A DNA stretch of 48,155 nucleotides, taken from the NCBI GenBank assembly GCA_964597675.1, contig CAZQYV010000001.1, positions 10,903-59,057 on the forward strand. The letters run 5' to 3'. Position numbers and translations under genes: made by a program. Within the stretch, counting starts at the first letter, position 1. Each line of letters starts with the position of its first letter. Source of the stretch: an uncultured Candidatus Saccharibacteria bacterium (GTDB lineage Bacteria; Patescibacteriota; Minisyncoccia; Phycocordibacterales; DATDWN01). Under the pieces are notes generated by a model that was not told the DNA's origin, searched no databases, and saw nothing but the letters and a program-made list of their open reading frames with translations. Positions 1,267 through 48,155 of this stretch are shown here, one piece after another.

Positions 1267-1280
1267 AGAGATATACTAAC

Positions 1281-5961: not shown

Positions 5962-5962
5962 T

Positions 5963-13590: not shown

Positions 13591-13600
13591 TCACCCCCCT

Positions 13601-13942
13601 ATGCTTCCCATAAATAGACGTATTCCACGAAAGGATTTCCCTTTCATACTACAGTCTGGGAGAAGGATAAATAGCCCTCATATATTGGCTTATATATTGA
13701 AAATCGACACAGAAAGCCCAAGTCGATTTTCTTTTTCTGTGTCAAAAAAGGTGGCAATAAATGCTGTTGACAGGAATAAGTACCGAAGACAAGGGTATTC
13801 TATCATTTCCAAACTTACACCACATATACAAGCAGGATACAAGGTTTTTTTCTCTTTTAAAAAAGGAACAGGACAATTTTCCTTTAAAATACTTGAAAGT
13901 GAGGTTATTTCTTTATTAAGAACTAGTGGTGTGATACTATAA
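13601..13942 (+). CDS. rnpA: RNase P protein component
   Basis: Start MLPINRRIPRKDF at 13601, giving 113 aa. Contains the KKVAINAVDRNKYRR motif. The track ORF 13499.. is extended over rpmH. Confidence 0.85.
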   Translation: MLPINRRIPRKDFPFILQSGRRINSPHILAYILKIDTESPSRFSFSVSKKVAINAVDRNKYRRQGYSIISKLTPHIQAGYKVFFSFKKGTGQFSFKILESEVISLLRTSGVIL

Positions 13943-13947
13943 GCCAC

Positions 13948-16310: not shown

Positions 16311-16312
16311 AA

Positions 16313-17182: not shown

Positions 17183-17185
17183 ATA

Positions 17186-18208: not shown

Positions 18209-18272
18209 TACTAGTATTGTACCATACCACTCTCTTCTCACTACAATTTTTATACACAATTATTAAAAAATC

Positions 18273-18398
18273 ACAAAACTCTTGGCTCGGTATACCTTTT
18301 TTAGAGCACGGATAAATCGTTGCTACGATTTTCCTCAAGTCTCGTGCCGTCGCACTTGCGAAGTCTCCAAAAAAGGTACACCTACGCCGTAGTTTTGT
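18273..18398 (-). repeat. Structured intergenic element, type A copy 2 (sense = minus strand), inside the T4SS-like operon
   Basis: Minus-strand read: ACAAAACT-ACGGCGTA-GGTGTACCTTTTTTGGAG-ACTTCGCAAG-TGC GACG GCA-CGAGACTTGAG-GAAAATCGT AGCA ACGATTTATCC-GTG-CTCTAAAAAAGGTATACC-GAGCCAAG-AGTTTTGT. It starts 10 nt after the virB4-like stop. Confidence 0.85.
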
Positions 18399-18408
18399 GA
18401 GCAAAATA

Positions 18409-20223
18409 CTATTGTCCGCTCTGCTCAAGTTCTGCTTTAGCTTTTTTAATAGAGAGAATTTGTGATGGGTCTGATGTAATGATCTGATCTTCTGTGTAAG
18501 ATGAGATAACTTTGACTGCAACATGCTTTAGTCCTGCAAAGAATATACCCTCACCAACATCTGATTCTAGAAGGAGGTATTTTTCCTCTTCTGTTAGACT
18601 AAAGACTTGTTGGAGACGATCAATCGAGGTTGGAGATTGTTTGAGGAGTATTTGGATAGATGAGTTTGTAATAATTGGCACTCCATATGGAGATTTCATA
18701 AAATCATCCACATCTTGGGTAATTGTTGCTAGTCCAAGGTAGTATTTTCGTCCACGTTTTGCCAAAGAAAGTAGAAATGAAGCCGTATCTTCAGATTTCA
18801 TCATCCACCACGCCTCATCAATTACCAAAAGTCGCTTCTTGAGTTTCTTTCGAATAACATTCCAGATATAGTGAGTGACGATATACATTGCAATCGGTTT
18901 CAACTCATCTTCCATATCGCGCAGAGAAAAGACAACTAATTTTTTGTTTATATCAACATTTGATGGTCGGTTTATAAATCCGGCCCATGTACCACGTGTG
19001 TATTTTGTTAGGCGCTGCGCCAACGACTCCCCCCCTTCCATACCAGAAAGGACTAATTCGAAATCAGACATTAGTGGAGGTTCAACATCTTTGAAATCCG
19101 AATCTGCTGTAATATCTTTCAAGGCATATGTTTCTGTAATTGCTCTGTCAATAATCGCATCTTCTTCTGGGGTTATTCCTCCCATCATGATACGAAATAG
19201 CCCAACAAGATTGATGATGTTTGAACGGAGAATATTTGAAAAAGATTCTCCTTCCCCAGGGGTTGGGAGTTCAAATGGGTTGATATGGTGTTCAGAGTTT
19301 AGGGAAATATTGAAATATCGCCCACCGACTGTCTCTGCTAAATATTCATACTCCCGTTCTGGATCAATAACAATAACATCTGTATCAAACATAAGTGTAC
19401 GGAGAATTTCCAGTTTGGTATTGTATGATTTTCCAGCACCAGATTTTGCAAATGTAATCGAATTGTAGTTTTCCAAAGAAAATCGGTCAAATAAAATAAG
19501 ACTAGAATTATGACGGTTTATACCATACAAAATACCCTTGTTTGATGTAAGATCGAAAGAAATAAAAGGAAAAAGACTGGAAAGTGGCGATGAATTGAGT
19601 TTGCTGTAGACTTTTAGTTCGTCTGTACCGATTGGTATAGTCGTTTTAAATCCTTGTTCCTGTTGAAATAGGGCTGGTTTTACATAAACCATCTTTGCTT
19701 CTAGGATTGATTTTATTTCGGATTCTATTTTATCGAGCTCTGCGTCATCGTTTCCATAGACAGTAAGATATAAACCAACATCAAAAAGCTTTTCCTGTGC
19801 TTGTTGAAGTTGATCGCGGAGGTTTTCTAGGTCTTGGTACGCTGTGTCTAGCATTGGATCACGGACCAACCCTTTTGCTTCTCGGGTATTTATTTGGCTC
19901 TGTACTTCAGCCACTTTTTTCTGAAATGTGCGCAAGACGTCTGATGTCTGTATTGGTTGAATATAAATTGATATATCAAAAATCTTATCTAGATTAATAA
20001 CCGGAGCAAACCAACTTTCTGATAAATATCGCGGGTAGGATATAACAAAAAAACTACGAAGGACTTTTTCTCCAAGATTAATTTCTTTTGGTGTTATATG
20101 GAGAGCGCTCGGAGCAATGATATCTTTTAACTCCAATGAACCTGCATCATATATCTCTTGGGGTAGGATAGATGTTATTTCTGGTTCCTTCTTTTTTGGT
20201 TGTAAAAAATCAAATAGTCCCAT
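18409..20223 (-). CDS. VirB4/TrsE/PrgJ-type type IV secretion ATPase
   Basis: Walker A FAKSGAGKSYNTK and Walker B LLVIDEAWWMM. About 600 aa with a VirB4-type N-terminal domain (YPRYLSESWFAPVINLDKIFDISIYIQP). The likely start MGLFDFLQPKK at 20223 lies 4 nt after the upstream stop. Confidence 0.85.
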   Translation of the reverse strand: MGLFDFLQPKKKEPEITSILPQEIYDAGSLELKDIIAPSALHITPKEINLGEKVLRSFFVISYPRYLSESWFAPVINLDKIFDISIYIQPIQTSDVLRTFQKKVAEVQSQINTREAKGLVRDPMLDTAYQDLENLRDQLQQAQEKLFDVGLYLTVYGNDDAELDKIESEIKSILEAKMVYVKPALFQQEQGFKTTIPIGTDELKVYSKLNSSPLSSLFPFISFDLTSNKGILYGINRHNSSLILFDRFSLENYNSITFAKSGAGKSYNTKLEILRTLMFDTDVIVIDPEREYEYLAETVGGRYFNISLNSEHHINPFELPTPGEGESFSNILRSNIINLVGLFRIMMGGITPEEDAIIDRAITETYALKDITADSDFKDVEPPLMSDFELVLSGMEGGESLAQRLTKYTRGTWAGFINRPSNVDINKKLVVFSLRDMEDELKPIAMYIVTHYIWNVIRKKLKKRLLVIDEAWWMMKSEDTASFLLSLAKRGRKYYLGLATITQDVDDFMKSPYGVPIITNSSIQILLKQSPTSIDRLQQVFSLTEEEKYLLLESDVGEGIFFAGLKHVAVKVISSYTEDQIITSDPSQILSIKKAKAELEQSGQ

Positions 20224-20227
20224 GATA

Positions 20228-20863
20228 TTAATTGAGTTTAATAGGTTTTTCTGAATCTCCCGGATTAAATGTCTTATAGAACAATTCAATCACCTCTTCT
20301 GTCCCAAGTCGAACAACACGAATACCACATCGGACCAATCCTTGTTCGACAACCCCAACACGTTGTTCAAGTTGTGTTCTATTTTCTTCAAATGATGCTT
20401 GTTTCTGTTCGGCAACTTCTTCGTTTGTCTTTTTGAAAAAACTCCCACCTATGCCACCTTTTACATTTAGTAGTGCAGGGTCATATGGCACAACAACAAA
20501 GAAACTTTTAGTCATAATGTTTGTTGTTTCTGTAAATTTTTTAATGAAATCAATATATTCTCGTGTCTGTATTTTCATTAGATCATTCATTTGTTCCTTG
20601 TATCGATCCTCTAAAAGGGCTACATATGGCCGTATATCCAAACGTCGTGACTCGACCGATATTTGAATTGGAAAATCAAGTGAATTTAGAAAATCTTGAA
20701 ACTGGAGGACAATTGCATTGCGTTCATCATCAGATTTGAGAGAAAAGTTGAGAGATGAAGCGAGCACGACTGCACGCATACCGCCGTCTTTTAATGTGAC
20801 GACGCCATCGCGTACATCTTTTATTGGAACAAACTCTTGTGTTGCTTGAGAAGAAACTGCCAT
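20228..20863 (-). CDS. Free-standing protein resembling the N-terminal domain of Gram-positive VirB4 ATPases (tentative)
   Basis: 211 aa. The segment QEFVPIKDVRDGVVTLKDGGMRAVVLASSLNFSLKSDDERNAIVLQFQDFLNSLDFPIQISVES follows the pattern seen at VirB4/TrsE N-termini. No P-loop is present. Confidence 0.5.
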   Translation of the reverse strand: MAVSSQATQEFVPIKDVRDGVVTLKDGGMRAVVLASSLNFSLKSDDERNAIVLQFQDFLNSLDFPIQISVESRRLDIRPYVALLEDRYKEQMNDLMKIQTREYIDFIKKFTETTNIMTKSFFVVVPYDPALLNVKGGIGGSFFKKTNEEVAEQKQASFEENRTQLEQRVGVVEQGLVRCGIRVVRLGTEEVIELFYKTFNPGDSEKPIKLN

Positions 20864-20912
20864 GAGACAATTATAACAGATATTTATAAATTAAAACATA
20901 AATACGAAAATT

Positions 20913-21347
20913 TTACCGTGTATGTGTGCCATCATCTCTTGTAACCGGGTTTGTGTTTTCATTTATATCGAGGTTCCACGACAATTCTTTTAATTTACTC
21001 TCGGATAATCGTGGTACAAACACTTGAGCAGGTTCTGCTTTTTCTGCTTCTTTATGTTCAGGTTTTCGTTCTTGTTTTTTCCAGATATAGAGACGGTCTT
21101 TTGTGTAATATAAAAATCCAGCTTCAAGAAAGTCTATAAACGGCTTGTTGTTGACCTTATAAAATGCCAAAGCAAGCGAAAGTGCGGCGAGAGCCCCAAT
21201 AATAAAAATAGAGATAATGAATGGTAGAAATCGATAGGCAAGGAAAATAAGTCCTGCTCCCCCAGCCAGGTAAATGAACTGTTTGACGGTCAGTGGGCCG
21301 ATGACTTTGTCCTCTATCTCAATAAATTGTGGTACTTGGTATCGCAT
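20913..21347 (-). CDS. PrgI-family (VirB3-like) membrane protein
   Basis: MRYQVPQFIEIEDKVIGPLTVKQFIYL followed by two TM helices. Size is 144 aa, and it lies immediately upstream of the VirB4-type genes. Confidence 0.7.
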   Translation of the reverse strand: MRYQVPQFIEIEDKVIGPLTVKQFIYLAGGAGLIFLAYRFLPFIISIFIIGALAALSLALAFYKVNNKPFIDFLEAGFLYYTKDRLYIWKKQERKPEHKEAEKAEPAQVFVPRLSESKLKELSWNLDINENTNPVTRDDGTHTR

Positions 21348-21348
21348 A

Positions 21349-22569
21349 TTATTCTATAGGTTCTCGATAAGGGTCAGTTGTATATTTTTCAGGTGTGCCT
21401 GTCGGCTTCTCTATTTTAGGCTTAACAACAGAATTTAATTTTGCCTCAATAATATTTTGTGGAGCAGTGTTGTTTTGAGGTACGGTCTGTGCAGGTGTCT
21501 GCTCCTGTGGTATCTCATCGGGTGCTGTTGCGGTAAAACGAGGCACAGGTACGGCGGGTACTTGTATTTCAGTAGGTTGCGACGGCCACACAATATGTGA
21601 AGGTTCTTCCATAACAGGTTTTTGTTCGACAGGAGTTTGTACTGGTGTTTCTGGTGTAGCAGGGGCTTGTTTCATCCATGGTGCTGCTGGTGGCACTGGG
21701 GTTACTGGCGTAGGTGTTTGTATAGCTTGTGGTGCAGGGGCAGGAGCCTTTCGAGTCTCAATAGGTTTCTCTTGAACTTCAATCGCCCCTGGTAAATTCT
21801 CTGGTACAAATGGGGTGGCTTGTTGAGGGATTGGTTTTGACACAAGTGGTTTTTCCTCCCCTCTTTTTTCAATTGTTTTTAGTGCGTAGTCAAAAACGCG
21901 TGTATCAAGATCACTCATAATTTGCTCAGCTAACACATCAGACAAATTTAGATCATTTATTAAAGATCCAAGAAAATCTTCAGGTGTTTCAAGACCAAGT
22001 AGACTTGATAATACCTTATTCTCAAGTTTATCTATCTGGTCAGGTGTTAATGAATATTTTCGTGCAATTTCCCGGACCCGTTCTTTGATAGTTTCATCAA
22101 ATAAACCTTTCAAATTAGCATCATTTGATGCAATATCTTTGATCTTATGTATCAAATCATTCTTATTCCCTAAAGAATCCTCATCTTCAACTGACGCTAA
22201 GTATGATTCAATATCAAAATCATTACCATTTTCCTGTTCAGTGCGTTTTGTGTTTTCGAGTATTTGTCTGAAAAATAGGTCCATTCCATAAAAGAACTTC
22301 TTTTTGATGTCAGAATCAATTTTGGCCGCAATATCATCACCAACACTTAAATCATTTTTTATATTCTCTTTTAATTTGTAAGGATTATCAAATCCCATAA
22401 GTACATACTGTGTGGTTGTATTAAGTGTATTAATCTGGAGTTCTGATAAATGGTATATGTGACCCAGATTTTCTATCTCAGTCGTAAATTCTGCAGATGC
22501 CAAAACTTCTCGCATCTTTCTTGGTAACGAATTATATCTATCCTTAAATTGTTGTGATGAATAATTCAT
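21349..22569 (-). CDS. Protein with two N-terminal helical repeats and a proline-rich C-terminal half (unknown function)
   Basis: ATG at 22569; the track ORF begins at a TTG 12 nt upstream. Contains two ~70-aa similar modules. The C-terminal PAPAPQAIQTPTPVTPVPPAAP-type tract has no TM helix. Confidence 0.6.
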   Translation of the reverse strand: MNYSSQQFKDRYNSLPRKMREVLASAEFTTEIENLGHIYHLSELQINTLNTTTQYVLMGFDNPYKLKENIKNDLSVGDDIAAKIDSDIKKKFFYGMDLFFRQILENTKRTEQENGNDFDIESYLASVEDEDSLGNKNDLIHKIKDIASNDANLKGLFDETIKERVREIARKYSLTPDQIDKLENKVLSSLLGLETPEDFLGSLINDLNLSDVLAEQIMSDLDTRVFDYALKTIEKRGEEKPLVSKPIPQQATPFVPENLPGAIEVQEKPIETRKAPAPAPQAIQTPTPVTPVPPAAPWMKQAPATPETPVQTPVEQKPVMEEPSHIVWPSQPTEIQVPAVPVPRFTATAPDEIPQEQTPAQTVPQNNTAPQNIIEAKLNSVVKPKIEKPTGTPEKYTTDPYREPIE

Positions 22570-22571
22570 AT

Positions 22572-24959
22572 TTATGTCCAATATCCAACTTCAGCTGGTT
22601 GGCTAATATATGCTTTGTGTGCTGCCTGACTTGCATATGGTGCGGCCGTGTTATTTATAACTGCGATAATCTCATCAATTTCAGCTTGGTCTAGATCCCC
22701 GTTTGCTTTCAAATCACGTAAATGTGGAACCGAAAGCCTCTTAATAACTTCTGGATTCTTAATTGCATCAGAAGAAAGGTTTCTAGCCTGTTTTGCTGGT
22801 AGTTTAGGTCCTTTCCCACCAACTGGCCCAATAAGCGTATCAAGTGTTGCTCCTGGTGTAGGTCCTGTACTGCCAGTAGGAATTGTAGGAAGTGAAAGTT
22901 TATTAATATCATCAATAGCTTGTTTGAATTTTTGTTTTCCTTCAGCCTCTCTTTCTTCTTTTTCTGTTTTTTCACGTTCCTCTTGTGAAAGTGATGCTCG
23001 CATTTTATTTCTCAAATCTGTTCCATCAGTTGCATTTTTGACTTTCAGTGGGTCTGCAGGGAGTTTAGATACCTCCTGATCAAGTGCCACACGGTTACGC
23101 GCAGATAATTTTTCATATATAAACTGTTGATCTTTTTCCTCATCGATTTTAGCAAATTCCTCAGCAAAAGCAGTTTGGTTATTTTTGTTTCGGCGAATAA
23201 CAGCCTCCAATTGGTCTTCTCGAGACAAACCTTCACGCATTTTCTTAATAATTTCGTTCCCAGCATCTCCAGGATTTTGTTTTGCTACCTCTCGCTCAAA
23301 TGCATCACGCTCACGAGGTGACAATTTTTCGTATATATATTTTTGTGCAGCACGCTCGCGACCAATAACATCAGTACTTGTAAGATATGTCGCCAAAACT
23401 TCTGGCTTATTTCGATATTTTTTAAGCACCACATCCCCCTCCTTTTTCTTCTTTTCAAGTTTTCTTTCCTTAATACCAGCAATACCACCTTCAGCAAATT
23501 TTTCATTAAATGGAATACCTTTACCTAAATTAACTCCTGTTTGTTTCTGTATCTGTTCACCAACCGAACTGCGTCTCAAATCAAAAGTTGATTCATTCCC
23601 TTTTTTCGCAGTCTTAAGAAGTGCTCGTGCACCAAGTCCTTTAAAACCACTTCCTGTGGCAGCGGCTTCCTGTAATTTTTTATTTTCAGCAATCAGTCCG
23701 GCACCTCTTCCAACCGTGTTTCGGAGTACCCCACCAGCAACACCACCCATAAGTACCCCACCCGCAGCCGCAGTGAGCCAATTTGTGGCGGTACCAAGCA
23801 TACTCGATCCCGCTGTTGCGTATTTTTTTGCCATGCTAATAGACATGATTACAAGTCCAAGCACTACTGCAAGATTTATAACAAGCACAATATTTGCACC
23901 TTTTCCGTTGACCAAGCCCGCCCATCCGGATATATCATTTGTACGAGGAATTATGCCTGTCGCAAGGACAAGTGTCACCCATGTCATAAACATGTAGATT
24001 GGGCCAAAGAGACATTGTCCCATAAGAGTTTTCCACCAATCACTTTGAGATGATTTAATAGAAGGAAACGCATATCCCATAAAAGCAATCGGCGAAAGAA
24101 CCATGAGAATTATAAGGGTAATATACCGAATAAGAAACATGGCACTGACTGCAATAAACGCAATTGCAACGGTTAGAAAGATAAGTGCTCCAAATAAGAC
24201 TAAAATGATACGTGATGTTCTTCCTCCATCTGAAAGATCTCCCGCCACTTTGTTAATTGAATCTTTTCTAAAAAAAGATGTCACATCTAATGTATTCATA
24301 AATGCACTTGAGAGTCCCCCTGTATTTTTATCAAGTGCAATCCCAGTACCACTCGAGTCTTTATTATCAATAGTGGTTGTTAGATCTGCGTTTGTGCCAC
24401 TGACTATTGATTTATAGAAGCCAATCGTAACAATATTTGATGCATCTATAATTACTTTTGTGACAAGGAGACTAAAGTTGAGAAGAAGTGATGTGAGGAT
24501 AATACCAATAACCAATTTTTTTGCATCCCCCCCTAACCCGAGTATTTTCTTCATCCCTTCAAAAATAAGAAGGAATATGAATCCGATATTCATGAGGTCT
24601 CGCATAACCACCCAAACCGTTTTTATACCCTCAATTTTATTTATATTGTCAGAAAATGTAACAACAGTGATTTCTATTACTTTATCGAGGAGGTATCCTG
24701 ACGCCCAGAGAAGCAAACTCATAAGCTGTAATATGAGGTATGCAAAGGGTAGTATAATTCCAGTCAGAATATTATCCCATGCAAAACCAACAAGAGTACC
24801 TCCATACTGCTTGAAAAAAGATTGCCCAGGAAGAAGATTGTCCTTTACTGTTTCGGCTACACTTGGTGGGGTTGCGGGTGTCTGTCCATACACCACAAAA
24901 GGCGAGAAAATCGCCAAGAGGAGAACAAAAATGGTGATGTAAGAGAAAACTTTTTTCAT
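22572..24959 (-). CDS. Large polytopic VirB6/TrbL-like membrane protein with long charged C-terminal tail
   Basis: 795 aa. N-terminal signal/TM and multiple TM helices over roughly aa 60-400 (e.g. IILVLFGALIFLTVAIAFIAVSAMFLIRYITLIILMVLSPIAFMGYAF). The ~370-aa hydrophilic tail contains a tandem repeat (QKYIYEKLSPRERDAFEREV / QQFIYEKLSARNRVALDQEV). Confidence 0.65.
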   Translation of the reverse strand: MKKVFSYITIFVLLLAIFSPFVVYGQTPATPPSVAETVKDNLLPGQSFFKQYGGTLVGFAWDNILTGIILPFAYLILQLMSLLLWASGYLLDKVIEITVVTFSDNINKIEGIKTVWVVMRDLMNIGFIFLLIFEGMKKILGLGGDAKKLVIGIILTSLLLNFSLLVTKVIIDASNIVTIGFYKSIVSGTNADLTTTIDNKDSSGTGIALDKNTGGLSSAFMNTLDVTSFFRKDSINKVAGDLSDGGRTSRIILVLFGALIFLTVAIAFIAVSAMFLIRYITLIILMVLSPIAFMGYAFPSIKSSQSDWWKTLMGQCLFGPIYMFMTWVTLVLATGIIPRTNDISGWAGLVNGKGANIVLVINLAVVLGLVIMSISMAKKYATAGSSMLGTATNWLTAAAGGVLMGGVAGGVLRNTVGRGAGLIAENKKLQEAAATGSGFKGLGARALLKTAKKGNESTFDLRRSSVGEQIQKQTGVNLGKGIPFNEKFAEGGIAGIKERKLEKKKKEGDVVLKKYRNKPEVLATYLTSTDVIGRERAAQKYIYEKLSPRERDAFEREVAKQNPGDAGNEIIKKMREGLSREDQLEAVIRRNKNNQTAFAEEFAKIDEEKDQQFIYEKLSARNRVALDQEVSKLPADPLKVKNATDGTDLRNKMRASLSQEEREKTEKEEREAEGKQKFKQAIDDINKLSLPTIPTGSTGPTPGATLDTLIGPVGGKGPKLPAKQARNLSSDAIKNPEVIKRLSVPHLRDLKANGDLDQAEIDEIIAVINNTAAPYASQAAHKAYISQPAEVGYWT

Positions 24960-24965
24960 GAAATC

Positions 24966-26282
24966 CTATGGGGTTAGTGGTGTTGTGCTTGTCGATGAAT
25001 CATTATATCTATCAGCATATTTCTTTGTTTGAGCGTCAACCTCCTGATCTGTTGGTGGTGTATATACTGGCTGTAATAATTCGACTGGTGTGCTCGATGC
25101 GACTAAATCTCTATTTTTTAAATCTTCACTCGTACTTTCTGGAGATCCGTTTGCCATTTTTTCGATAAGTGATCGTGATGCATTGTCAGCAACACTTTTC
25201 TCTGTGGCACCCTTGAGTCCATTACCGATTCCACCAACGACCATTTGGAAGAGTTGTGTCATCAGGGCACTGACAATTTGGTTTATATCATTAACCAACT
25301 CGAGTTGTGTGACTGAACTACCGATAACTTTATTAAGTTGTGTACCAATAACACTGCCTGGTGTAACCGCTTCCTTGTCCCCTGGTGCACAATCTCCTTG
25401 TCCGAGGCCACTATCAATATATTCAACAGTTGTTTTGTATTTTTTACATTGAGGAGGATTTTTAGTAAAGTCGACTTGCCCCTCTTCACACTCTGTTGTA
25501 GGTGTGGCTGTCAGCTGTCCACTACCCGTCAAGGTTGCTCCTTTTTTACATCTTTCAAATGATAAAAAACCTAGACCACGATTGAGTTGGTCATCATATT
25601 TTTTATTTTGGCTACCAATTTGGACATCAAGGTCACTCTGGGCGTTGATGAGGGCTCCAAACGGGTTGTTCTGGCTATTTTGAGTCATACTAAACCACCC
25701 TTCCCATCCACCCTCATCAAAATTTTTCATAAAAGCATCATAGTTTTTTTCCACGGTCCCAAGTGTACATGCATATTGTGTTTGATCATTGAGATAATTT
25801 TTTGCTAAAGCAAGTCTCACTTGTGCACGAAAAGGTGTACAGAGTTTATTGAGCGCAGAGTTTTCTGACAGCATTTTTGCGGCAACCGTATCCCCAACAT
25901 TGAGGAAAAATTGGTTTGGATCGGTCACAAAGGCAGGATTTCCTTTGAAACCGCTGTTTACCCAGTTGACTGTTTGTGCGGTGATACCACGGATAATTTG
26001 TCGAGCAACAAAAATAGCCAGTGGCTTGCCAATAAATTCTTTTATATTAAGTGTTGTTTGATTTGTGGCGCTAACTACTGTCGCTGGGGCAATTGCACCA
26101 AGGAGAACAGAATTAAGAGCATGGGAACCAGCATTAAAAAGATCAGCAACAGGCAAAAGAGGAATAATAGCTTCTGTTTTTTTTGGTGCTGTAAAAAAGA
26201 AAAGTGGAACGATGAGGAGTATAAAAAGTAAAGCTGATCCAATACGTTTCTTTGATCGTTGTGTATAGTCAAATAGAGGCAT
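24966..26282 (-). CDS. Membrane-anchored/secreted protein of unknown function (T4SS-like cluster)
   Basis: ATG 26282 (MPLFDY...) or GTG 26306. TM helix ALLFILLIVPLFFF followed by a large extracytoplasmic domain with several Cys. 6 nt separate it from the VirB6-like gene. Confidence 0.6.
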   Translation of the reverse strand: MPLFDYTQRSKKRIGSALLFILLIVPLFFFTAPKKTEAIIPLLPVADLFNAGSHALNSVLLGAIAPATVVSATNQTTLNIKEFIGKPLAIFVARQIIRGITAQTVNWVNSGFKGNPAFVTDPNQFFLNVGDTVAAKMLSENSALNKLCTPFRAQVRLALAKNYLNDQTQYACTLGTVEKNYDAFMKNFDEGGWEGWFSMTQNSQNNPFGALINAQSDLDVQIGSQNKKYDDQLNRGLGFLSFERCKKGATLTGSGQLTATPTTECEEGQVDFTKNPPQCKKYKTTVEYIDSGLGQGDCAPGDKEAVTPGSVIGTQLNKVIGSSVTQLELVNDINQIVSALMTQLFQMVVGGIGNGLKGATEKSVADNASRSLIEKMANGSPESTSEDLKNRDLVASSTPVELLQPVYTPPTDQEVDAQTKKYADRYNDSSTSTTPLTP

Positions 26283-26352
26283 GGTAGTGTCTATAGTATA
26301 CACCACCTACTGCAATAAAAACTAGCAATTCTGTTGAAAAGTTTTAGGAAAA

Positions 26353-27166: not shown

Positions 27167-27205
27167 ATAGTATATCATATTCTCTTTTTGGAGATGATAT
27201 ACTAT
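27167..27205. promoter_or_regulatory. Perfect 12-bp inverted repeat spanning the 41-bp divergent spacer (operator and/or mirrored -10 elements)
   Basis: ATAGTATATCAT (27167-27178) and ATGATATACTAT (27194-27205), 15 nt apart. Each arm contains TATACT when read toward its gene. Each arm ends at or within a few nt of the respective start codon (27162 minus, 27204 plus). Confidence 0.45.
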
Positions 27206-28655
27206 GTGTATCATGAAAAAATTATGTTATGCAATCCTAGGAATTTTATTTATTAGTCTTTGTGTTCCATTTTTTGTAAGTGCAGGGCAACTTGCACCTT
27301 CACCATTTAATGCGGGGGGCCAACTTGACGCTGGTTGGGCAAATATGGGTAGTGGAAAATACTACAATAGTACCCTCGGCATATATTCAAACGCAGACGG
27401 TAGTATTCAGAGTTATACATCAGAGATATTTAGTGCAAGTACACAGGGCAATCAAATACAAACTGTGGCTAGCGAGGATACTATGCAAGGAATTTGTATC
27501 TGGAACAACTATGATAAAACATTTCAGCCAGCAAATGATCAAGTTTTTGCAACCAGGGCCGTTGCAGACCAAATGGCACAGAGATTTGGAGGTACAGTAA
27601 TAGAAATTTATTTGAGTACAGATGGTCCATACAGAACGGTCAATATTTGTGCATTTCCTGCTGGGCAGACAACAATTCTCCAAGAAAATCTTGTACCAGA
27701 ATATACAGTAAAAGTAGGAAATTATCGTGGAAATGCGGCCGCAATCAACCATTTATTCCAAACATACCCATATTCAACAGCGTTTGCCATGGTTAAAGCA
27801 GAAATTGATGCTGCAAATAATACAAGCGGAGGAGGTGGTAGTGGTAACGGTGGAGGAGGGTCAGGCACCGGTGGAGGAACAACACCGCCAGTTATAACAT
27901 CAACACAAGGGGCAGCGGTTGAAGTTAAAATAAAAACAATGGCGCAACGAATGGCCAAAGACTACTTCGATGCATATAACAGAGCATCAGGATTGACTCG
28001 CAATACAACTACGATAGGTGGTTCTGGTGGGTTGCCGACTACTTGTCAGAGATTTGATAACAACTTAAAACTTGGAGATACAGGACCTGATGTATTGGCA
28101 CTAACACAAATATTAAAAATGGAGGGGTTATTGAATGAAACAACTGATACTTTTGATCAGACAGTCTTTCGTGCAGTTGTTCTTTATCAAGAACGCTACG
28201 CAGAAGAAATTTTGGTTCCTGCAGGGCTTACAGCAGGTACGGGTCTTGTAGGTACAAATACTCGAGAGCATTTAAACTCATTATGTGAAGAAGTAGATGA
28301 CACGGATAGTGGATCAGTAGGCAATACGGACCCCGTTGTAAATTTGGTGGTTGGAAATAACAATAAAATAGCAATATATAGTGTTGGAGAGACGATTCCA
28401 TATACTGTCACTATGACAAACGTAAATTCAGTCAGTTCTTTTTACAACACTATTCCAAAGGACACATGCGTCGGTGGTTCAACAAATGGCGAACAGAAAC
28501 CATGGATTGTTAGTTTCCCTGTATCAAACAGCGTTTTATCTGAAACAGTCAAATCATGTCAGGCAGGATCAACATATATCATCAGTGTTATAGGTACAAA
28601 TACAACAACAGGAAAGATTAGTGCATCATCTGTTTCGGTTTACATTAGACCATAG
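27204..28655 (+). CDS. Secreted protein with Gly-rich linker and peptidoglycan-binding (PG_binding_1-like) domain
   Basis: Signal peptide MKKLCYAILGILFISLCVPFFVSA and linker SGGGGSGNGGGGSGTGGGTTPP. The segment LKLGDTGPDVLALTQILKMEGLL...FRAVVLYQERY is a PG-binding repeat. The C-terminal part is beta-rich. Confidence 0.65.
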   Translation: MCIMKKLCYAILGILFISLCVPFFVSAGQLAPSPFNAGGQLDAGWANMGSGKYYNSTLGIYSNADGSIQSYTSEIFSASTQGNQIQTVASEDTMQGICIWNNYDKTFQPANDQVFATRAVADQMAQRFGGTVIEIYLSTDGPYRTVNICAFPAGQTTILQENLVPEYTVKVGNYRGNAAAINHLFQTYPYSTAFAMVKAEIDAANNTSGGGGSGNGGGGSGTGGGTTPPVITSTQGAAVEVKIKTMAQRMAKDYFDAYNRASGLTRNTTTIGGSGGLPTTCQRFDNNLKLGDTGPDVLALTQILKMEGLLNETTDTFDQTVFRAVVLYQERYAEEILVPAGLTAGTGLVGTNTREHLNSLCEEVDDTDSGSVGNTDPVVNLVVGNNNKIAIYSVGETIPYTVTMTNVNSVSSFYNTIPKDTCVGGSTNGEQKPWIVSFPVSNSVLSETVKSCQAGSTYIISVIGTNTTTGKISASSVSVYIRP

Positions 28656-28659
28656 TTTT

Positions 28660-28783
28660 ATAAAATTACAGTGAAGGTGTGTCTTTACCCGAACCTTGCA
28701 CAGGCCGACGGGCCGAGCAGAGCAAAAAGCCAGCAGGCTTTTATGTGTGTGAGGGGAAAGACACACCAAGCCAAGAATTTTAT
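28660..28783 (+). repeat. Structured intergenic element, type B copy 1
   Basis: ATAAAATT-ACAGTGAA-GGTGTGTCTTTACCC-GAACCTTGCACA-GGCC GACG GGCC-GAGCAGAG-CAAAAAGCC AGCA GGCTTTTATG-TGTGTGA-GGGGAAAGACACACC-AAGCCAAG-AATTTTAT. It starts 5 nt after the upstream stop. Confidence 0.85.
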
Positions 28784-28829
28784 AAAACTAGTAGAATAAA
28801 TAAAAACACATCTCTGTCACGAGGTGTTT

Positions 28830-37726: not shown

Positions 37727-37772
37727 TCCGTTAAAAATTATTTTATATTCAGATTATTTCGATTCGTAGTCT

Positions 37773-37897
37773 ACAAAATTACGGCGAGATCGTATCTCTT
37801 GTGGAGACTTCGCAAGGCGGGTAGCCGAGACTTGAGCGATTTTTCAGCATAAAAATACGCGTGCTCCACAAGAGATAGGATGAGCCAAGAATTTTGT
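37773..37897 (+). repeat. Structured intergenic element, type A copy 3
   Basis: ACAAAATT-ACGGCGAGATCG-TATCTCTTGTGGAG-ACTTCGCAAG-GCG GGTA GCC-GAGACTTGAG-CGATTTTTC AGCA TAAAAATACG-CGTG-CTCCACAAGAGATA-GGATGAGCCAAG-AATTTTGT. Both flanking genes are on the minus strand. Confidence 0.85.
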
Positions 37898-37910
37898 AAT
37901 GTACAATTAA

Positions 37911-39213: not shown

Positions 39214-39255
39214 ATATTATAAGTGTAACAAAATACAACAAAGGAAAACAAATTT

Positions 39256-39378
39256 ACAAAACAACGGTGAAGGAATATCGTTTTTGGAGACTTCGGAGCT
39301 CGACGGAGCGAGATTGAGCGAATGTCTAGCAAGACATATCGCGTGCTCCAAAAAGGATATTCCGAGCCAGTGTTTTGT
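39256..39378 (+). repeat. Structured intergenic element, type A copy 4
   Basis: ACAAAACA-ACGGTGAA-GGAATATCGTTTTTGGAG-ACTTCGGA-GCTC GACG GAGC-GAGATTGAG-CGAATGTCT AGCA AGACATATCG-CGTG-CTCCAAAAAGGATATTCC-GAGCCAG-TGTTTTGT. Confidence 0.85.
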
Positions 39379-39383
39379 AAGAA

Positions 39384-39961: not shown

Positions 39962-40085
39962 ACAAAATTACTTACTCAGTATGTCTTTCTCCTCACACAC
40001 ATAAAAGCCTGCTGGCTTTTTGCTCTGCTCGGCCCGTCGGCCTGCGCAAGGTTCGGATAAAAACATACTTTCGCTGTAATTTTGT
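39962..40085 (-). repeat. Structured intergenic element, type B copy 2 (sense = minus strand)
   Basis: The core matches B1 except for one substitution (GCGCA versus GCACA). Closing helix AGTATGTTTTTATCC / GGAGAAAGACATACT. Outer helix ACAAAATTA (39962-39970) / TAATTTTGT (40077-40085). Confidence 0.85.
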
Positions 40086-40563: not shown

Positions 40564-41496
40564 ATGGCTTCTCTCAAAAAACTTAAACAGCAGTTTCTAG
40601 AGTATATTGAAATCGAAAAGGGTCGCTCGGTAAATACTGTAGAGAATTATGACCGCTACCTCACTCGTTTTTTGGAATATATTAAAAATGATTCTCCTGC
40701 TGATATTACAGATACATCAGTACGGGAGTTTCGACTTTGGCTTAATCGACAGCCACTAAAAAACCTCGGTAAACTGAACGAAACACTAAGCAAAAAAACA
40801 CAGAATTATTATTTGATCGCCATTCGGGCATTTCTCAAATATATGGCACGTCAGGAGGTCAAAACCCTGCCTGCAGAGAGGATTGAGCTTGCAAAAGTAC
40901 AGGAGCGATCTCTAGATTTGATCACTGAGCCAGAATTGAAGCGACTACTGAATGCTCCAAATGGAGATAGTCTCAAGGATTATCGGGATCGTGCTATACT
41001 TGAGCTTCTTTTTTCTACTGGGTTACGTGTGTCAGAGCTATGTTCCCTATCTCGTGATATCGATTTGCACTCCGATGAAATTTCTATTCGTGGTAAAGGA
41101 GGAAAAGTACGAGTGGTTTTTGTTTCTGACAAGGCCAAGAAGGTTGTAAAAGACTATTTATCAAAAAGAAAAGATATGGATGATGCTTTGTTTATAAAAT
41201 TAGCCGAGAATTTGCCTAAAACAATGGGTAGAAAAGGAGAAAATTTGGGCTTAACAAAACGCTCTATCGAGAGGATAGTCAAGGAATTAGCTATTAAAGC
41301 GGGTATATCTAAAAAGGTTACTCCCCATATGATGCGCCATCTTTTTGCTACCGATCTACTTTCCAATGGAGCAGATCTTCGTTCAGTTCAGGCCTTGTTG
41401 GGTCACGCAAATATTGGCACTACCCAGATCTATACACACGTAACCGATAAACATCTCCGTGATGTTCATAAAAAATTTCACAACAAAAGTGAATAA
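40564..41496 (+). CDS. XerC/XerD-type tyrosine recombinase
   Basis: 310 aa with an SAM-like N-domain, R..LLFSTGLRVSEL, and HMMRHLFATDLLSNGADLRSVQALLGHANIGTTQIYTHV (R-H-R-Y catalytic pattern). Confidence 0.85.
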   Translation: MASLKKLKQQFLEYIEIEKGRSVNTVENYDRYLTRFLEYIKNDSPADITDTSVREFRLWLNRQPLKNLGKLNETLSKKTQNYYLIAIRAFLKYMARQEVKTLPAERIELAKVQERSLDLITEPELKRLLNAPNGDSLKDYRDRAILELLFSTGLRVSELCSLSRDIDLHSDEISIRGKGGKVRVVFVSDKAKKVVKDYLSKRKDMDDALFIKLAENLPKTMGRKGENLGLTKRSIERIVKELAIKAGISKKVTPHMMRHLFATDLLSNGADLRSVQALLGHANIGTTQIYTHVTDKHLRDVHKKFHNKSE

Positions 41497-44542: not shown

Positions 44543-44652
44543 GGGAGTAAATAGTTACTTGTGGTCTCGATAATTTTCTCGCCGCCGCTCAAAAATTTCT
44601 ACGACCCCAGGACTCGCCTATTTTTTCTGGGGAAAAAATATGGCTGTGTCCC

Positions 44653-44700
44653 GCACAAGTCTTAAAAAATCTAAAGCAGTTTAGATTTTTTAGCTTGTGC
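44653..44700 (-). terminator. Long hairpin immediately 3' of tRNA-Arg that overlaps the last 3 nt of the tRNA
   Basis: Plus-strand read: GCACAAG-TCTT-AAAAAATCTAAA-GCAG-TTTAGATTTTTT-AG-CTTGTGC. The inner stem is 12 bp and perfect. Confidence 0.55.
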
Positions 44701-44769
44701 GCCCGGCAGGAATCGAACCCACATCCACGGTTCCGAAGACCGGTACTCTATCCGTTGAGCTACGGGCGC
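44698..44769 (-). tRNA. tRNA-Arg (anticodon TCG), no encoded CCA
   Basis: Hand fold: GCGCCCG TA GCTC AACGGATA GAGT A CCGGT CTTCGGA ACCGT GGAT GTGGG TTCGATT CCTGC CGGGCGC A. There is one mismatch at the top of the anticodon stem. Confidence 0.8.
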
Positions 44770-44782
44770 ATTAATTTTACTG

Positions 44783-45676: not shown

Positions 45677-45747
45677 CGGGGTGTAGTATAGCGGTAGTAT
45701 TCATGATTTGGGATCATGCGGCCCGAGTTCGATTCTCGGCACCCCGA
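45677..45747 (+). tRNA. tRNA-Pro (anticodon TGG), no encoded CCA
   Basis: Hand fold: CGGGGTG TA GTAT AGCGGTA GTAT T CATGA TTTGGGA TCATG CGGC CCGAG TTCGATT CTCGG CACCCCG A. Confidence 0.85.
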
Positions 45748-45793
45748 CAGATACAGAAGAAACCTCACTCGAGGTTTTTTCTGTATCTGTCGG
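45744..45793 (+). terminator. 23-bp hairpin overlapping the last 4 nt of tRNA-Pro
   Basis: CCGACAGATACAGAAGAAACCTC-ACTC-GAGGTTTTTTCTGTATCTGTCGG, with one G-U. The inner part (AACCTC/GAGGTT followed by a T-run) looks like a terminator. Confidence 0.6.
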
Positions 45794-45903
45794 GAGTGAA
45801 CAAAGTCATAGTATGACTCTGTGTCCGAAATCGAAAAGCGGAGCGGGGCAGGTTTACTTTTTATAGATATTGGTATAATCTTTCGTCAGAAAGGGTTTTT
45901 GTT

Positions 45904-46461
45904 ATGAGAAAACAGGTAACTGGATGGGGTAATCTGAGTGCTGATGTAACGGGGTTGAGACGTAAAGTCAAAAAACTTAAGGAAATGATCGAGTATGTTT
46001 CGAGTCAAGATAAAGGGGTTACGGAGTTAATTAGTGACTTGAATATGAAAAGGAGAGGACGGACTATTACTCTTCTTGAGTCGAGGAATGAAGCTATTTG
46101 TCTAACTCATTCAATTGTTTTTAGAGGTTCATCACCTTTGGATCTATTGGTCCATAAAGACCATGTTAAGGTAGTTAGACTAAATAAGGCGTGGACAGAA
46201 AGCTATAGATGTTATGATAGTGACGCTGTATACACGTCTTGTAGTGGTTCAAGCTGCACAATTGCTTGTACTCGCTGTTGTGATGTGTTGTCTCATTCTT
46301 CGGTTATGGATGAGTACGGAAATAGTTATTCATTAGGTACTGACGACTTGCCATTAAATATCGAGTTCGGATCATTTTATTCTACGGAGACTATCGATCT
46401 TATCTCCGAGAAATGTTTTGGGATGGTTCCTGTCACCATGGATAACATCCTCAGTCTGTGA
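45904..46461 (+). CDS. Cys-rich cytoplasmic hypothetical protein (185 aa)
   Basis: Preceded by TATAAT (about 45873) and AAAGGG. Contains a Cys cluster CSGSSCTIACTRCC. No motif recognised. Confidence 0.5.
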   Translation: MRKQVTGWGNLSADVTGLRRKVKKLKEMIEYVSSQDKGVTELISDLNMKRRGRTITLLESRNEAICLTHSIVFRGSSPLDLLVHKDHVKVVRLNKAWTESYRCYDSDAVYTSCSGSSCTIACTRCCDVLSHSSVMDEYGNSYSLGTDDLPLNIEFGSFYSTETIDLISEKCFGMVPVTMDNILSL

Positions 46462-46560
46462 AGTTATTGCAGTATAAATGCGATGGGTTGGACCTAGCGC
46501 ATTTTCTTTTTATATAGAATTTCGTGATAGTATCAGTTTGAGTATATAATAATACGATAT

Positions 46561-46869
46561 ATGTCATCTCAATTTATAAAAAATAAAGAAAATTTTGTCT
46601 GTGAAAAGTGTGGTGCAAAGGTAGAGGGAAATGGATATACAAACCACTGTCCAGAGTGTTTGTGGTCAAAACATGTTGATGTTTTCCCTGGGGATCGGGC
46701 AGGGGACTGTGGTGGAATGATGGAGCCGGTTAGAATTGAAAAGAAAGGTAAAGAATATAATATAATCCACAAATGTCGCACCTGTGGCATTGAAAAGCCG
46801 AATAAAGCCGTGCCAGAAGATAATTTTCAAATGATTGTTCAGATTAGTGCGGAGTATGGTAACAAATAG
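46561..46869 (+). CDS. RNHCP-domain zinc-ribbon protein
   Basis: FVCEKCGAKV...YTNHCPECLWSKHVD...HKCRTCG, the RNHCP-type motif with two CxxC pairs. Confidence 0.75.
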   Translation: MSSQFIKNKENFVCEKCGAKVEGNGYTNHCPECLWSKHVDVFPGDRAGDCGGMMEPVRIEKKGKEYNIIHKCRTCGIEKPNKAVPEDNFQMIVQISAEYGNK

Positions 46870-46871
46870 GT

Positions 46872-47035
46872 AAAAAAATTTCTCGCTCAGTGTATTTTTT
46901 CTGGCGCAATCTATCTAGCCCTACTGAGCTAGCGAACTTCTCGTCGTTCAAGAAAACAATGTCGGAATACCTCCTTGTTTTCTAAACTTCTGCGAAAGGC
47001 GCCAGTCAAAACACACCTTCACAAGGAATTTTGTG
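46872..47035 (-). repeat. Structured intergenic element, type C copy 2 (sense = minus strand)
   Basis: The core is ~96% identical to 1281-1441. The closing helix changes compensatorily (CTGGCGC/GCGCCAG here versus TTGAGC/GCTCCAA in copy 1). Hairpin CTAGCTC AGTA GGGCTAG has a U-G only on the minus strand. Confidence 0.8.
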
Positions 47036-47049
47036 ACAAGTATTTAAGG

Positions 47050-47173
47050 ACAAAACCTCTTGCTCAGTACATCTTTTACCTCACACACATAAAAGCCTGC
47101 TGGCTTTTTGCTCTGCTCGGCCCGTCGGCCTGCGCAAGGTTCGTCAAAAGACGTACTTTCGCCAAAGTTTTGT
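47050..47173 (-). repeat. Structured intergenic element, type B copy 3 (sense = minus strand), in tandem with type C copy 2
   Basis: The core is identical to B2. Closing helix AGTACGTCTTTTGAC / GGTAAAAGATGTACT has two G-U pairs on the minus strand only. Outer helix ACAAAAC (47050-47056) / GTTTTGT (47167-47173). Confidence 0.85.
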
Positions 47174-47191
47174 ATAAGAGATGGGAGGAGA

Positions 47192-48155
47192 TTATTTCTT
47201 TAACTCATCAATAATTATTTTGGAAAGGGTAGGGGCGATTGTTGTGTTGAAAATACGACTAACCTCGTCGGGATTTTGTGAGAGAAGGTCAGAGAGATTA
47301 CCGGTTGTTTCTTCTAGGAGACTGCGGTTTATGTGAGAGAGTGTAATTGCTCGCAGATCACGGTCACTCGTTTCTTTTCCATCAGAGCTAGTCGTAATAA
47401 TACCAATCAGTTTATTGTCACCGTCCACCACTGCACCGCCAGATGCACCTTTTTGTGATACGACAGTGCCGGGTACTGAAATAAGATCAACAGTATTTTG
47501 CTTATAGGTATATATTTTTTTAATTGTTGTGATTGCGGTTGTGATATTGAGATCTTGCAAGACTGAAAGCCCACCAAGAAAGCCAGCGGGGTAGGAGGCG
47601 AGTAGGACTGGGTCACCTTCAGCTGTGATTTCTTGTGTATTTGGAGCAATATAATTAAATGTCGGTAGAGGTTCCTTGTTTATACTATTTGTTATTCTAA
47701 GGAGGGCAAAATCGTGTTCACCTGTGCCCTGCGGGTTACTTTGCTTTAGTAAGTCTTTATTTGATTCGACCCAACGCGGTGAAATATACATTAGTTCGAC
47801 GTTGTATCGTGGGTAGGCAGGGCTTCCTGTACGTACAATACAATGGACATAATTTTTTTCTCTAAAATCTTGAACTAAAAAATACTGACCAATATGTGCG
47901 TTCGTTAGGATAATGCCACGGGCATCAATAATAACACCGGTGCCGGTGATGGGGGAGAGTTCACCTCCTTTTGTGGTGCAGAGAATATTGACCACTGATT
48001 TTCTGCTGGTCTCATTGATTTTAACAAAGTCTGGTGTGGGTTTTTGTACGACAGGTGTCTGTACCACAATCGTCGTTGTACTTGTTACTTCTGGGATTGG
48101 TTTTTTAACCACCTTTTTAACTGGTGTGGTGGTTGAGGTTTGTTTGACTAGGACA
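47192..48155 (-). CDS. Trypsin-like (S1 family) serine protease, N-terminus runs off the right window edge
   Basis: GTGVIIDARGIILTNAHI (His), DFALLRI (Asp) and GASGGAVVD (Ser). The reading frame stays open upstream of the track start (48112) all the way to the window end. Confidence 0.8.
   Translation of the reverse strand, partial: VLVKQTSTTTPVKKVVKKPIPEVTSTTTIVVQTPVVQKPTPDFVKINETSRKSVVNILCTTKGGELSPITGTGVIIDARGIILTNAHIGQYFLVQDFREKNYVHCIVRTGSPAYPRYNVELMYISPRWVESNKDLLKQSNPQGTGEHDFALLRITNSINKEPLPTFNYIAPNTQEITAEGDPVLLASYPAGFLGGLSVLQDLNITTAITTIKKIYTYKQNTVDLISVPGTVVSQKGASGGAVVDGDNKLIGIITTSSDGKETSDRDLRAITLSHINRSLLEETTGNLSDLLSQNPDEVSRIFNTTIAPTLSKIIIDELKK

Follow-up and report, generated by a model that had tools for sequence, protein, structure and literature searches.

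Type C and type B elements of a Saccharibacteria spacer as neighbouring copies of a structured, probably mobile repeat family of Patescibacteria

The stretch of DNA analysed here (48,155 nucleotides of an uncultured Candidatus Saccharibacteria bacterium, contig CAZQYV010000001.1, in the following called the window) carries two different structured elements, termed type C and type B, in the spacer between an RNHCP-domain gene and a gene for a trypsin-like serine protease. On balance, these elements are probably mobile, recombining, palindromic interspersed repeats of Patescibacteria which are selected for the fold of one strand, and the pair represents two independent copies lying next to each other. 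Whole elements are gained and lost as discrete DNA units, near-identical copies occur at unrelated loci and modules reassort between copies. Literature searches by topic and by sequence strings found no description of the repeat family, which is apparently undescribed so far.

The spacer of 322 nt (46870-47191) separates two convergent genes, the RNHCP-domain gene on the plus strand (46561-46869, 102 amino acids, with PF12647 on record for the identical protein) and the protease gene on the minus strand (47192-48112, taken from the list of open reading frames (ORFs), with PF00089 and PF13365 in the orthologue of strain L001). Both elements are arranged head-to-tail on the minus strand, 14 nt apart. 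The type C element, which is the second copy of its type in the window, extends over 46868-47036 (164-169 nt) with its core at 46895-47011, and the type B element, the third copy of its type, over 47050-47175 (124-126 nt) with its core at 47070-47153; the linker in between (47037-47049) is AT-rich and, as read from the sequence, about 13-14 nt long. Two covariance models were established, R1 from 92 type B relatives and R2 from 48 type C copies. R2 matches the type C element with 124.3 bits (E 2.6e-29) and R1 the type B element with 90 bits (E 1e-23). An earlier note on this DNA had described the 322-nt spacer with type C at 46872-47035 and type B at 47050-47173, both on the minus strand and 14 nt apart, and coordinates, folds and models agree with this description. 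The type B element begins 17 nt behind the stop codon of the protease gene on the same strand, and the 3' end of the type C element lies a few nucleotides from the stop codon of the RNHCP gene on the opposite strand. With read-through transcription, the 3' untranslated end of the protease mRNA would consist of types B and C.

In each element the outer stem P1 joins both ends. Read along the minus strand, the type C copy consists of a long closing stem P1, the junction CUUUCGCAG, the enlarged arm P2, CGACGAGAAGUUCGC, the hairpin P3 and AGAUAGAUUGC, and RNAfold assigns -59.9 kcal/mol to the minus strand versus -42.8 to the plus strand. The type B copy is built from P1, CUUGCGCAG, P2 (GCC-GACG-GGC), CGAGCAGAGCA, P3 (AAAAGCC-AGCA-GGCUUUU) and AUGUGU. 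Another type C element, copy 1, is located at 1274-1448 on the minus strand (core 1303-1419, R2 124.6 bits) and is flanked by two minus-strand genes, of which the downstream one is tsaE (832-1266, minus strand, TsaE by Pfam). The complete type C signature, namely P1, CUUUCGCAG, a long P2 capped by G-UAnU-C, CGACGAGAAGUUCGC, P3 and AGAYAGAUUGC on one strand, is present at 46895-47011 and at 1303-1419. The two cores are identical at 91 of 93 positions (97.8%; by BLAST 96.2% over 104 nt), which confirms the core identity of about 96% reported earlier for a second copy at 1281-1441. Both core differences, CAGAAG/CAGGAG and CTAGCTC/CTAGCCC, are single changes, and the latter, in the third hairpin, gives a U-G pair on the minus strand only, as had been noted. 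P1 differs between the copies, with CUGGCGC/GCGCCAG in copy 2 and UUUGAGC/GCUCCAA in copy 1. The closing helix had been called compensatory; this applies to two pairs which changed on both sides (C-G to U-A and C-G to A-U), whereas one pair has become a U-C mismatch.

Evidence for mobility comes from sister strains. Among contigs encoding an identical RNHCP protein, L003, L004 and L007 share the spacer of the window with type C and type B, while L001, L002, L005 and L006, at about 3% DNA divergence, possess a spacer of 144 nt with type B only; in strains L001 and L002 this type B copy is 97% identical to that of the window. About 174 nt, corresponding to the whole type C element with its own stem, are present or absent as a block, and no clear direct repeat is associated with it. 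Since sister strains with an identical RNHCP protein carry type B alone, the tandem is not a unit, and the notion of one functional unit or module of a 3' untranslated region is not supported. In related loci amounting to about 1.1 Mb, no further tandem of type C and type B was found and just one more close pair, namely two copies of the B family in opposite orientation, 32 nt apart (L134, 366-564). In a contig of 901 nt (L008) a type C core is located between the RNHCP flank and an unrelated flank and its closing stem is mismatched; either this contig stems from a third copy in the genome, or the assembly has jumped from one repeat to another. A second strain-level indel is found in the same 9 kb: compared with 44543-44771 of the window, strain L001 (5176-5865) contains about 460 additional nt including an ORF of 150 amino acids without Pfam hit, next to the gene of the CCA-adding enzyme and a tRNA-Arg/tRNA-Gly pair.

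Near-identical copies at unrelated loci were detected as well. L063 and L123 share a 99-nt element with 99% identity as their sole similarity in more than 10 kb, and two loci of one metagenome-assembled genome (MAG) share 157 nt with 98.7% identity (L037/L042); two loci of one MAG likewise share 159 nt with 95.6% identity (L022/L033). At the ends of these three copy pairs and at the filled and empty RNHCP/protease site no direct repeats were found. Instead, the palindrome of near-identical copies is extended into the flanks by 2-8 bp which pair within a copy and differ between copies; such private flank pairs are ATTGC/GCAAT, an AT-rich extension of 8 bp, GCAC/GUGC and 2-3 bp in L042. The pair L022/L033 is less clear, with 2 bp added to the palindrome in L022 and none in L033. 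From these few cases, the palindromic flanks would fit either insertion at the centre of a short palindrome or outward growth of the palindrome. Other palindromes were seen next to tRNA-Pro, which is followed in the window (45677-45794) by a palindrome of 24 bp that uses the tRNA 3' end as its 5' arm; strain L001 (6830-7040) has an additional, different palindrome of 30 bp from the tRNA 3' end, together with about 80 nt.

Many other copy pairs have a core of 56-100 nt that is 95-100% identical, joined to unrelated P1 stems. Within the type C copies, 39 variants of the distal P2 and 30 variants of P3 form 46 combinations in 48 copies, and one P3 sequence is found with six different P2 tips. P2 and P3 variants assort freely and therefore the copies recombine or exchange cores.

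For the evaluation of the fold, 49 type C copies, 47 of them from other genomes, and 92 type B copies were aligned. The type C consensus fold comprises 46 pairs with 95.8% of the cells paired, as compared to 37-50% in slid controls. Double-sided changes occur in 29 of the 46 pairs, and 0 of 500 shuffles reach the observed values. In type B, P1 is paired in 82%, P2 in 93% and P3 in 97.5%, the covariation score amounts to 0.78 versus 0.23 in shuffles, and the column pairs 66:91 and 32:97 covary cleanly. That the helices are maintained by compensation, as had been proposed, is therefore well supported for both types. An alternative pairing of GCRCA with UGYGU in type B was rejected because of 17 A-C combinations and because column 91 covaries with column 66. 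Unpaired columns were searched for long-range covariation as a test for pseudoknots, and none was detected. The junction strands are essentially invariant; this is partly imposed by the search patterns, and positions outside the patterns are fixed, too. Altogether an element is a nested palindrome. Outermost there is an optional stem, which is conserved and contains an internal loop, followed by a stem specific to the copy and, innermost, by the three-way-junction core. This core is nearly invariant, with about 20-35 unpaired bases that are fixed and two hairpins that covary. In a kink-turn the C and NC stems are separated by a bulge of 3 nt and, behind it, tandem G-A / A-G pairs. The outer internal loop contains the non-bulged GA and lacks the GA of the bulged strand, and a kink-turn was rejected as the loop has 3 nt (GWA) facing 2 nt (GA), an asymmetry of 1 and not 3.

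The fold is selected on one strand. At variable pairs of type C, G-U/U-G combinations outnumber A-C/C-A combinations 76:21 (p 2e-8) and three G-U pairs are invariant; in type B the ratio is 94:55 (p 0.002). As G-U pairs outnumber A-C, the structured strand is fixed and the fold is selected on one single strand, which for the pair discussed here is the minus strand, in agreement with the RNAfold energies and with the earlier assignment. The selected single-stranded form could be RNA or single-stranded DNA, both of which are compatible with the pair counts.

Repeat finding and inspection revealed ten long-hairpin elements in the window, nine of which belong to three types: type C twice, type B three times and a type A four times. 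The nine copies comprise about 1.2 kb in 48 kb, i.e., about 2.5% of the window. All of them start with ACAAAA and end with UUUUGU (or similar), flanking a long stem. RNAfold z-scores of the window elements are between -5 and -8, and the lower energy is always found on the assigned strand. R1 recognizes the three B copies with 90-94 bits and the four A copies, which have altered junctions, with 43-50 bits; R2 recognizes both C copies with 124 bits and the B and A copies weakly with 15-29 bits. All matches are on the strands assigned before, and the scores of the B and C copies together with the z-scores place the repeats far above what chance would produce. Because of these cross-matches on the same strands, types A, B and C are one superfamily, and the two elements of the spacer are indeed different members of one structured family, as had been suggested. 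The common plan is P1, a conserved junction, hairpin P2, a conserved junction, hairpin P3 with an AGCA-type loop and a third junction. The type A/B signature, which is found at 47070-47153, comprises P1, CUUGCRCAG, a P2 of 3 bp with a GAC(U)G loop, CGAGCAGAGCA, a P3 of 8 bp with AGCA loop and bulged A, and GYGU.

Type B copy 1 is located on the plus strand at 28653-28790 (core 28680-28763, R1 93.6 bits, inverted repeats I1 and I8) and overlaps the stop codon of the gene 27204-28655. Copy 2 on the minus strand (39962-40085, core 39982-40065, R1 92.8 bits) is flanked by an NYN-domain gene and rpsO and has a 99% identical counterpart in strain L001. Of the type A copies, the one at 6453-6574 (plus strand, core 6471-6556, R1 49.8 bits, E 6e-12, inverted repeat I12) takes the last codons and the stop codon of ruvC (5780-6454, RuvC by Pfam) into its P1. 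The others are situated at 18271-18400 (minus strand, core 18293-18378, R1 43.4 bits, fold -58.2 kcal/mol, z -8.0), at 37772-37898 (plus strand, core 37793-37877, R1 45.8 bits), antisense to pnp and a dksA/traR-like gene (Pfam), and at 39255-39380 (plus strand, core 39276-39359, R1 44.2 bits), antisense to both neighbours. An element of 166 nt at 4145-4310 lies antisense to both of its neighbours, pilB-like and ruvB. On the minus strand it folds into a multi-branched structure (-78 kcal/mol, z -10.9) closed by a near-perfect stem of 26 bp. It was rejected as a family member, since neither R1 nor R2 matches; it has no Rfam match and no relatives among the loci compared.

Relatives of type C were searched in one representative genome per species with both junction strands fixed and arm P2 free. 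The scan yielded 49 loci, of which 46 are true copies and three are chance matches in GC-rich genomes. The hosts are many MAGs labelled Paceibacterota, Nomurabacteria, Zambryskibacteria, Minisyncoccia, Parcubacteria or Patescibacteria and some Saccharibacteria; almost all named genomes sharing type C are Patescibacteria. The type B pattern occurs in at least 120 stretches of metagenomes, with about 95 true copies among the matches listed. These derive from groundwater and other metagenomes, including contigs named Hain- and many JGI contigs; one type B locus (L080) and the sister-strain contig L002 share their JGI sample of origin. Neither pattern is present in the viral contigs of IMG/VR. In several MAGs type A/B copies were found within type C loci, too. 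Other contigs contain about one copy per 60 kb besides the seeded copies, and with nine per 48 kb the window is thus unusually rich. At three loci (L023 4590-4760, L029 5880-6050, L045 3820-3990) a P3 and 3' junction resembling A/B are joined to a different 5' half (GAGCGAAGCGAGUUUGCG...UUGUUUUCUUGAUUGCCGAGC). Because this subtype mixes an A/B-like P3 with another 5' half, its sequence suggests that module combinations beyond types A, B and C may exist.

With respect to genes, the elements are placed and oriented almost at random. With long ORFs as proxy for genes, both neighbours were available for 43 type C and 82 type B copies. Type C is co-oriented within a tandem in 14 cases, antisense to a tandem in 9, between divergent genes in 11 and between convergent genes in 9; for type B the respective numbers are 14, 32, 15 and 21. 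The antisense excess of type B is nominally significant (p about 0.01), and the trend in type C is opposite. The elements mostly fill their spacer, the gaps to the genes being mostly below 30 nt, and some include the last codons and the stop codon of the neighbour (e.g., ruvC, 6452-6454). A recurrent linked gene was not found: in an all-against-all comparison of 271 flanking ORFs clusters comprise at most four members, all of them housekeeping. The flanking ORFs include EF-P-, TrmD-, MreC-, RelA- and superoxide-dismutase-like proteins (names read from the sequence, without a domain scan). Type C occupies the spacer between a superoxide-dismutase-like and a ComEC-like gene (names likewise read from the sequence) in four species, in one of them inverted; the neighbouring proteins are 64-84% identical among these species. 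There the element is immediately followed by an extended -10 box and what seems to be a leaderless start. Apparently leaderless genes were noted right behind elements (window 1266-1290, L049 880-910, L053 6290-6320), their extended -10 box preceding the start codon by 6-7 nt (TGTTAGTAT-N6-ATG or TGGGTATAAT-N7-ATG) and the -35 position falling inside the outer arm of the element.

As to the mechanism, the elements would spread or exchange via a single-stranded intermediate (single-stranded DNA or RNA), and the folded core may serve as a recognition platform for a putative trans-acting protein. They would land in, or create, short palindromic contexts, not direct target duplications. At the locus described here type B followed by type C would constitute a very stable structured 3' end of the protease transcript, and this end might act as terminator or 3'-end stabiliser between the convergent genes, a secondary effect comparable to that reported for REP, ERIC and Correia elements.

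Among known systems, REP/REPIN, BOX, ERIC and Correia elements seem to be the analogues that fit best. The REP/BIME and REPIN elements of Proteobacteria owe their mobility to RAYT (Y1/HUH) transposases; a REP measures about 35 nt, has a conserved head of the GTAG type and is seldom found between divergent genes. The elements resemble REP, BIME and REPIN as short non-coding palindromic repeats which fill spacers, occur singly or clustered, show selection of a hairpin on one strand and are gained or lost between strains without direct target duplication, and the stabilisation or termination of transcripts can be a side effect of REPs. They differ from REPs by units of 90-175 nt, the three-way-junction core, copy-specific stems and their common occurrence in divergent spacers. 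A REP/REPIN system with RAYT was rejected: 11 of the 43 type C copies and 15 of the 82 type B copies lie between divergent genes, and neither a RAYT-like gene nor a Y1/HUH domain was found in the approximately 40 window proteins or the 271 flanking ORFs.

With BOX (boxA-boxB-boxC), RUP and SPRITE of Streptococcus pneumoniae, ERIC/IRU of enterobacteria and Correia/NEMIS of Neisseria the elements have in common a size of about 100-170 nt, modularity, stable folds and a scattered distribution in either orientation beside unrelated genes, and co-transcription is frequent for those repeats. Like the modules of BOX, the subtypes have a scaffold in common. We know of no sequence relationship to any of these repeats, and the unpaired junction bases are far more conserved across many species in the elements described here. 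Correia elements have fixed terminal repeats of 26 bp and a TA duplication, whereas here the terminal stems vary and no duplication was seen. What sets the family apart from REP/REPIN, BOX, ERIC and Correia elements is hence the invariant core, the copy-specific stems, the occurrence in divergent spacers and palindromic flanks instead of direct duplications. Insertion sequences (IS) which target palindromes are known, as IS1397 and ISKpn1 insert into REP loops and IS110-family elements into REP-like sites. The copy-specific inverted flanks resemble those expected for insertion at a palindrome centre; such IS are autonomous and carry a transposase gene, whereas the elements here contain no ORF and the rule rests on three copy pairs.

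Several further classes were considered and rejected. A classical miniature inverted-repeat transposable element (MITE) has fixed terminal inverted repeats matching those of a parent IS and a direct target-site duplication; here the terminal stems differ between copies, and direct repeats are missing at the three copy pairs and the filled/empty site. The orientation of PATE elements, which are derived from IS200/IS605, follows the replication direction, and they insert 3' of a fixed tetra- or pentanucleotide with TnpA/TnpB nearby, whereas our copies are oriented in a mixed fashion around dnaA-dnaN, the copy pairs have no common flanking tetranucleotide and no TnpA/TnpB was found. Integron attC sites are defined by R''/R' boxes (RYYYAAC / GTTRRRY), arrays of cassettes in one direction and a nearby intI gene; the elements end in ACAAAAY / RTTTTGT, occur in both orientations and have housekeeping genes next to them. 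The only gene of the integrase family in the window (40564-41496, Phage_integrase Pfam domains) is read as putative Xer-like. None of the 4227 models of Rfam 15 (riboswitch, ribozyme, sRNA or leader) matches an element near its gathering score: across the whole window only three tRNAs pass, and in permissive searches no element was matched at E up to 1 (window) or 10 (46800-47250).

Several observations argue against mobile repeats. Classical terminal inverted repeats and direct target duplications are both absent, and no clear palindrome is recognisable at the empty site of type C copy 2. The Pfam assignments of the approximately 40 window proteins include no transposase, reverse transcriptase or HUH/Y1 enzyme, and none recurs near copies. 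Copies of the same genome usually share the core and not P1, and this fits old copies under purifying selection or core exchange better than a recent burst. At the superoxide-dismutase-like/ComEC-like spacer the core is nearly unchanged across species in which the neighbouring protein is only 67-84% identical, which points to a function for the host, or to concerted evolution, more than to pure selfishness. Finally, G-U pairs that never change and conserved tetraloops (AGCA, GACG, UAnU) would rather be expected in functional RNAs.

The main rival is accordingly the explanation that the elements are independently expressed, trans-acting structured small RNAs (sRNAs), perhaps protein-binding or a class of self-cleaving ribozymes, present as multi-copy genes for which DNA mobility is secondary; we regard it as possible, if doubtful. 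It would explain why the junctions stay nearly invariant while the stems covary across order-level divergence, and why strand asymmetry is clear, with three G-U pairs and the tetraloops kept. Multi-copy RNA motifs such as the hammerhead, twister and pistol ribozymes or the Rfam motifs of Weinberg et al. likewise combine covarying stems and invariant junctions with many copies per genome and no fixed gene link; the elements differ from them in having no recognisable consensus of a catalytic core and, as stated, no Rfam ribozyme or sRNA match. A location independent of orientation and context, as for tRNA-like genes, and the retention of type C at an orthologous spacer in four species are in line with sRNA genes as well, as is the arrangement of 53 of 82 type B copies, whose 3' end points towards that of a neighbouring gene. 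However, -10 boxes upstream of the structured strand show no excess over the opposite side, and gaps to the genes usually below 30 nt leave no room for a promoter. In the divergent superoxide-dismutase-like/ComEC-like spacer the element even occupies the room between the promoters of both genes, and the missing long-range covariation of unpaired positions is a further point against such RNAs.

Data from RNA libraries point in both directions. No RNA runs are listed for the locus of the window or for the 9.4-kb locus L082 (a Hainich contig). The type C copy of L053 as query retrieved seven runs with assembled contigs of 156-462 nt, which contain type C cores of other organisms with unlike flanks. 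Two of the seven (X23 and X25) are labelled metatranscriptomic, which speaks for sRNAs; the contigs indicate presence in the library and not strand, ends or abundance, and considering their long unlike flanks, carry-over of DNA is possible. The runs X21, X22 and X23 belong to separate studies of different years, two being coded as the same organism and one as a mosquito metagenome, and all three contain one and the same type C copy, which is identical in its flanks as well. This suggests one strain of Patescibacteria recurring as associate or contaminant in these runs.

Mobility and RNA function may also be combined. It is conceivable, though rather unlikely, that the A/B and C cores represent a widespread functional RNA class of Patescibacteria (e.g., a self-cleaving ribozyme or the RNA partner of a protein) on a mobile palindromic scaffold which inserts at palindrome apices.

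That the elements are host-encoded bidirectional terminators or insulators, i.e., large hairpins of A-tract, stem and U-tract which evolve by local duplication and gene conversion, appears improbable. An intrinsic terminator is a short GC-rich stem directly followed by a U-tract at the 3' end of a gene. All copies have A-rich 5' and U-rich 3' ends, in the window as ACAAAA ... UUUUGU around a long stem, the elements fill spacers directly after stop codons, downstream genes seem to own an extended -10 box right behind the element, and the pair described here lies between convergent genes. Yet a consensus terminator scan of 46400-47400 flags no element, and many copies are situated where no terminator is expected, above all in the divergent spacers counted above. 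An invariant three-way-junction core of 60-93 nt would be superfluous for termination, and sister strains manage without type C at the RNHCP/protease spacer.

The earlier note had further proposed that the enlarged arm of type C displays AAGGAGGT in its loop, as a Shine-Dalgarno-like sequence. In the fold supported by covariation the segment AAGGAGGU (46969-46976, minus strand) is instead the 5' strand of the distal stem of P2, with GG/CC pairs, GA facing GA and a UAUU loop as cap. It occurs in 9 of 49 type C copies, i.e., both window copies and seven others. GAGG is present in 24 of 49 copies and absent from 25. At the place of AAGGAGGT other copies have ACAAUGGU/CCAUUG, ACAAUUGU/CAAUUG, AUAAAGU/CUUUAU or AAAGCAGU/CUGCUU, which keep the distal stem by changes on both strands, so that only the stem, the closing G-C pair and the loop UAnU are conserved in the P2 tip; across type C copies the helices are thus maintained while the string is not. 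The string may be a by-product of a stem variant with GA/GA and GG/CC. A cis-acting module in the 3' untranslated region with the type C arm as Shine-Dalgarno mimic and ribosome or anti-Shine-Dalgarno decoy, for which the presence of the string in both window copies and the co-orientation of the pair with the protease gene might speak, is scarcely credible, because AAGGAGGT is paired in a stem and missing in 40 of 49 copies, many copies are antisense to or outside any mRNA, and type C is dispensable at this locus.

With regard to the remaining window, dnaN (minus strand), dnaA (minus), rnpA (plus) and yidC (plus) are found together at 10669-14679, and because of this cluster the window probably spans the chromosomal replication origin. 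A clear switch of the GC skew was not seen at 2-kb resolution. An orientation rule relative to the replication strand was rejected, as orientations are mixed on either side of dnaA/dnaN. The adjacent minus-strand block (14688-26306) looks like a type IV secretion-like or DNA-uptake cluster; it codes for a TraG/VirB4-like ATPase (18409-20289) and for a PrgI-like protein (20913-21347), and most of the genes around these two are without Pfam hit. The GC content ranges from 30 to 43% across the window, and many window proteins are without Pfam hit. Together with the secretion-like block and with the named genomes that share type C, this points to a Patescibacteria genome, probably of the Paceibacteria type.

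Patescibacteria (candidate phyla radiation) possess tiny, gene-dense genomes whose non-coding content is barely charted. The family recurs in many species and in many metagenomes from groundwater, wastewater and soil, and its covariation is among the clearest possible. For annotation, such spacers are to be regarded as repeat elements and not as gene-specific regulatory sites, and the Shine-Dalgarno-like string not as a ribosome-binding site; joins as in L008 are a practical hazard for binning and assembly. If the elements are mobile repeats, they would provide strain markers, explain assembly breaks such as that of L008 and point to a mobilising enzyme which recognises structure and palindromes. 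Should they be functional RNAs, a new RNA class from a major uncultivated lineage would have been found, and if functional RNA cores reside on a mobile scaffold, the elements would be small RNA-based mobile genes and not inert repeats.

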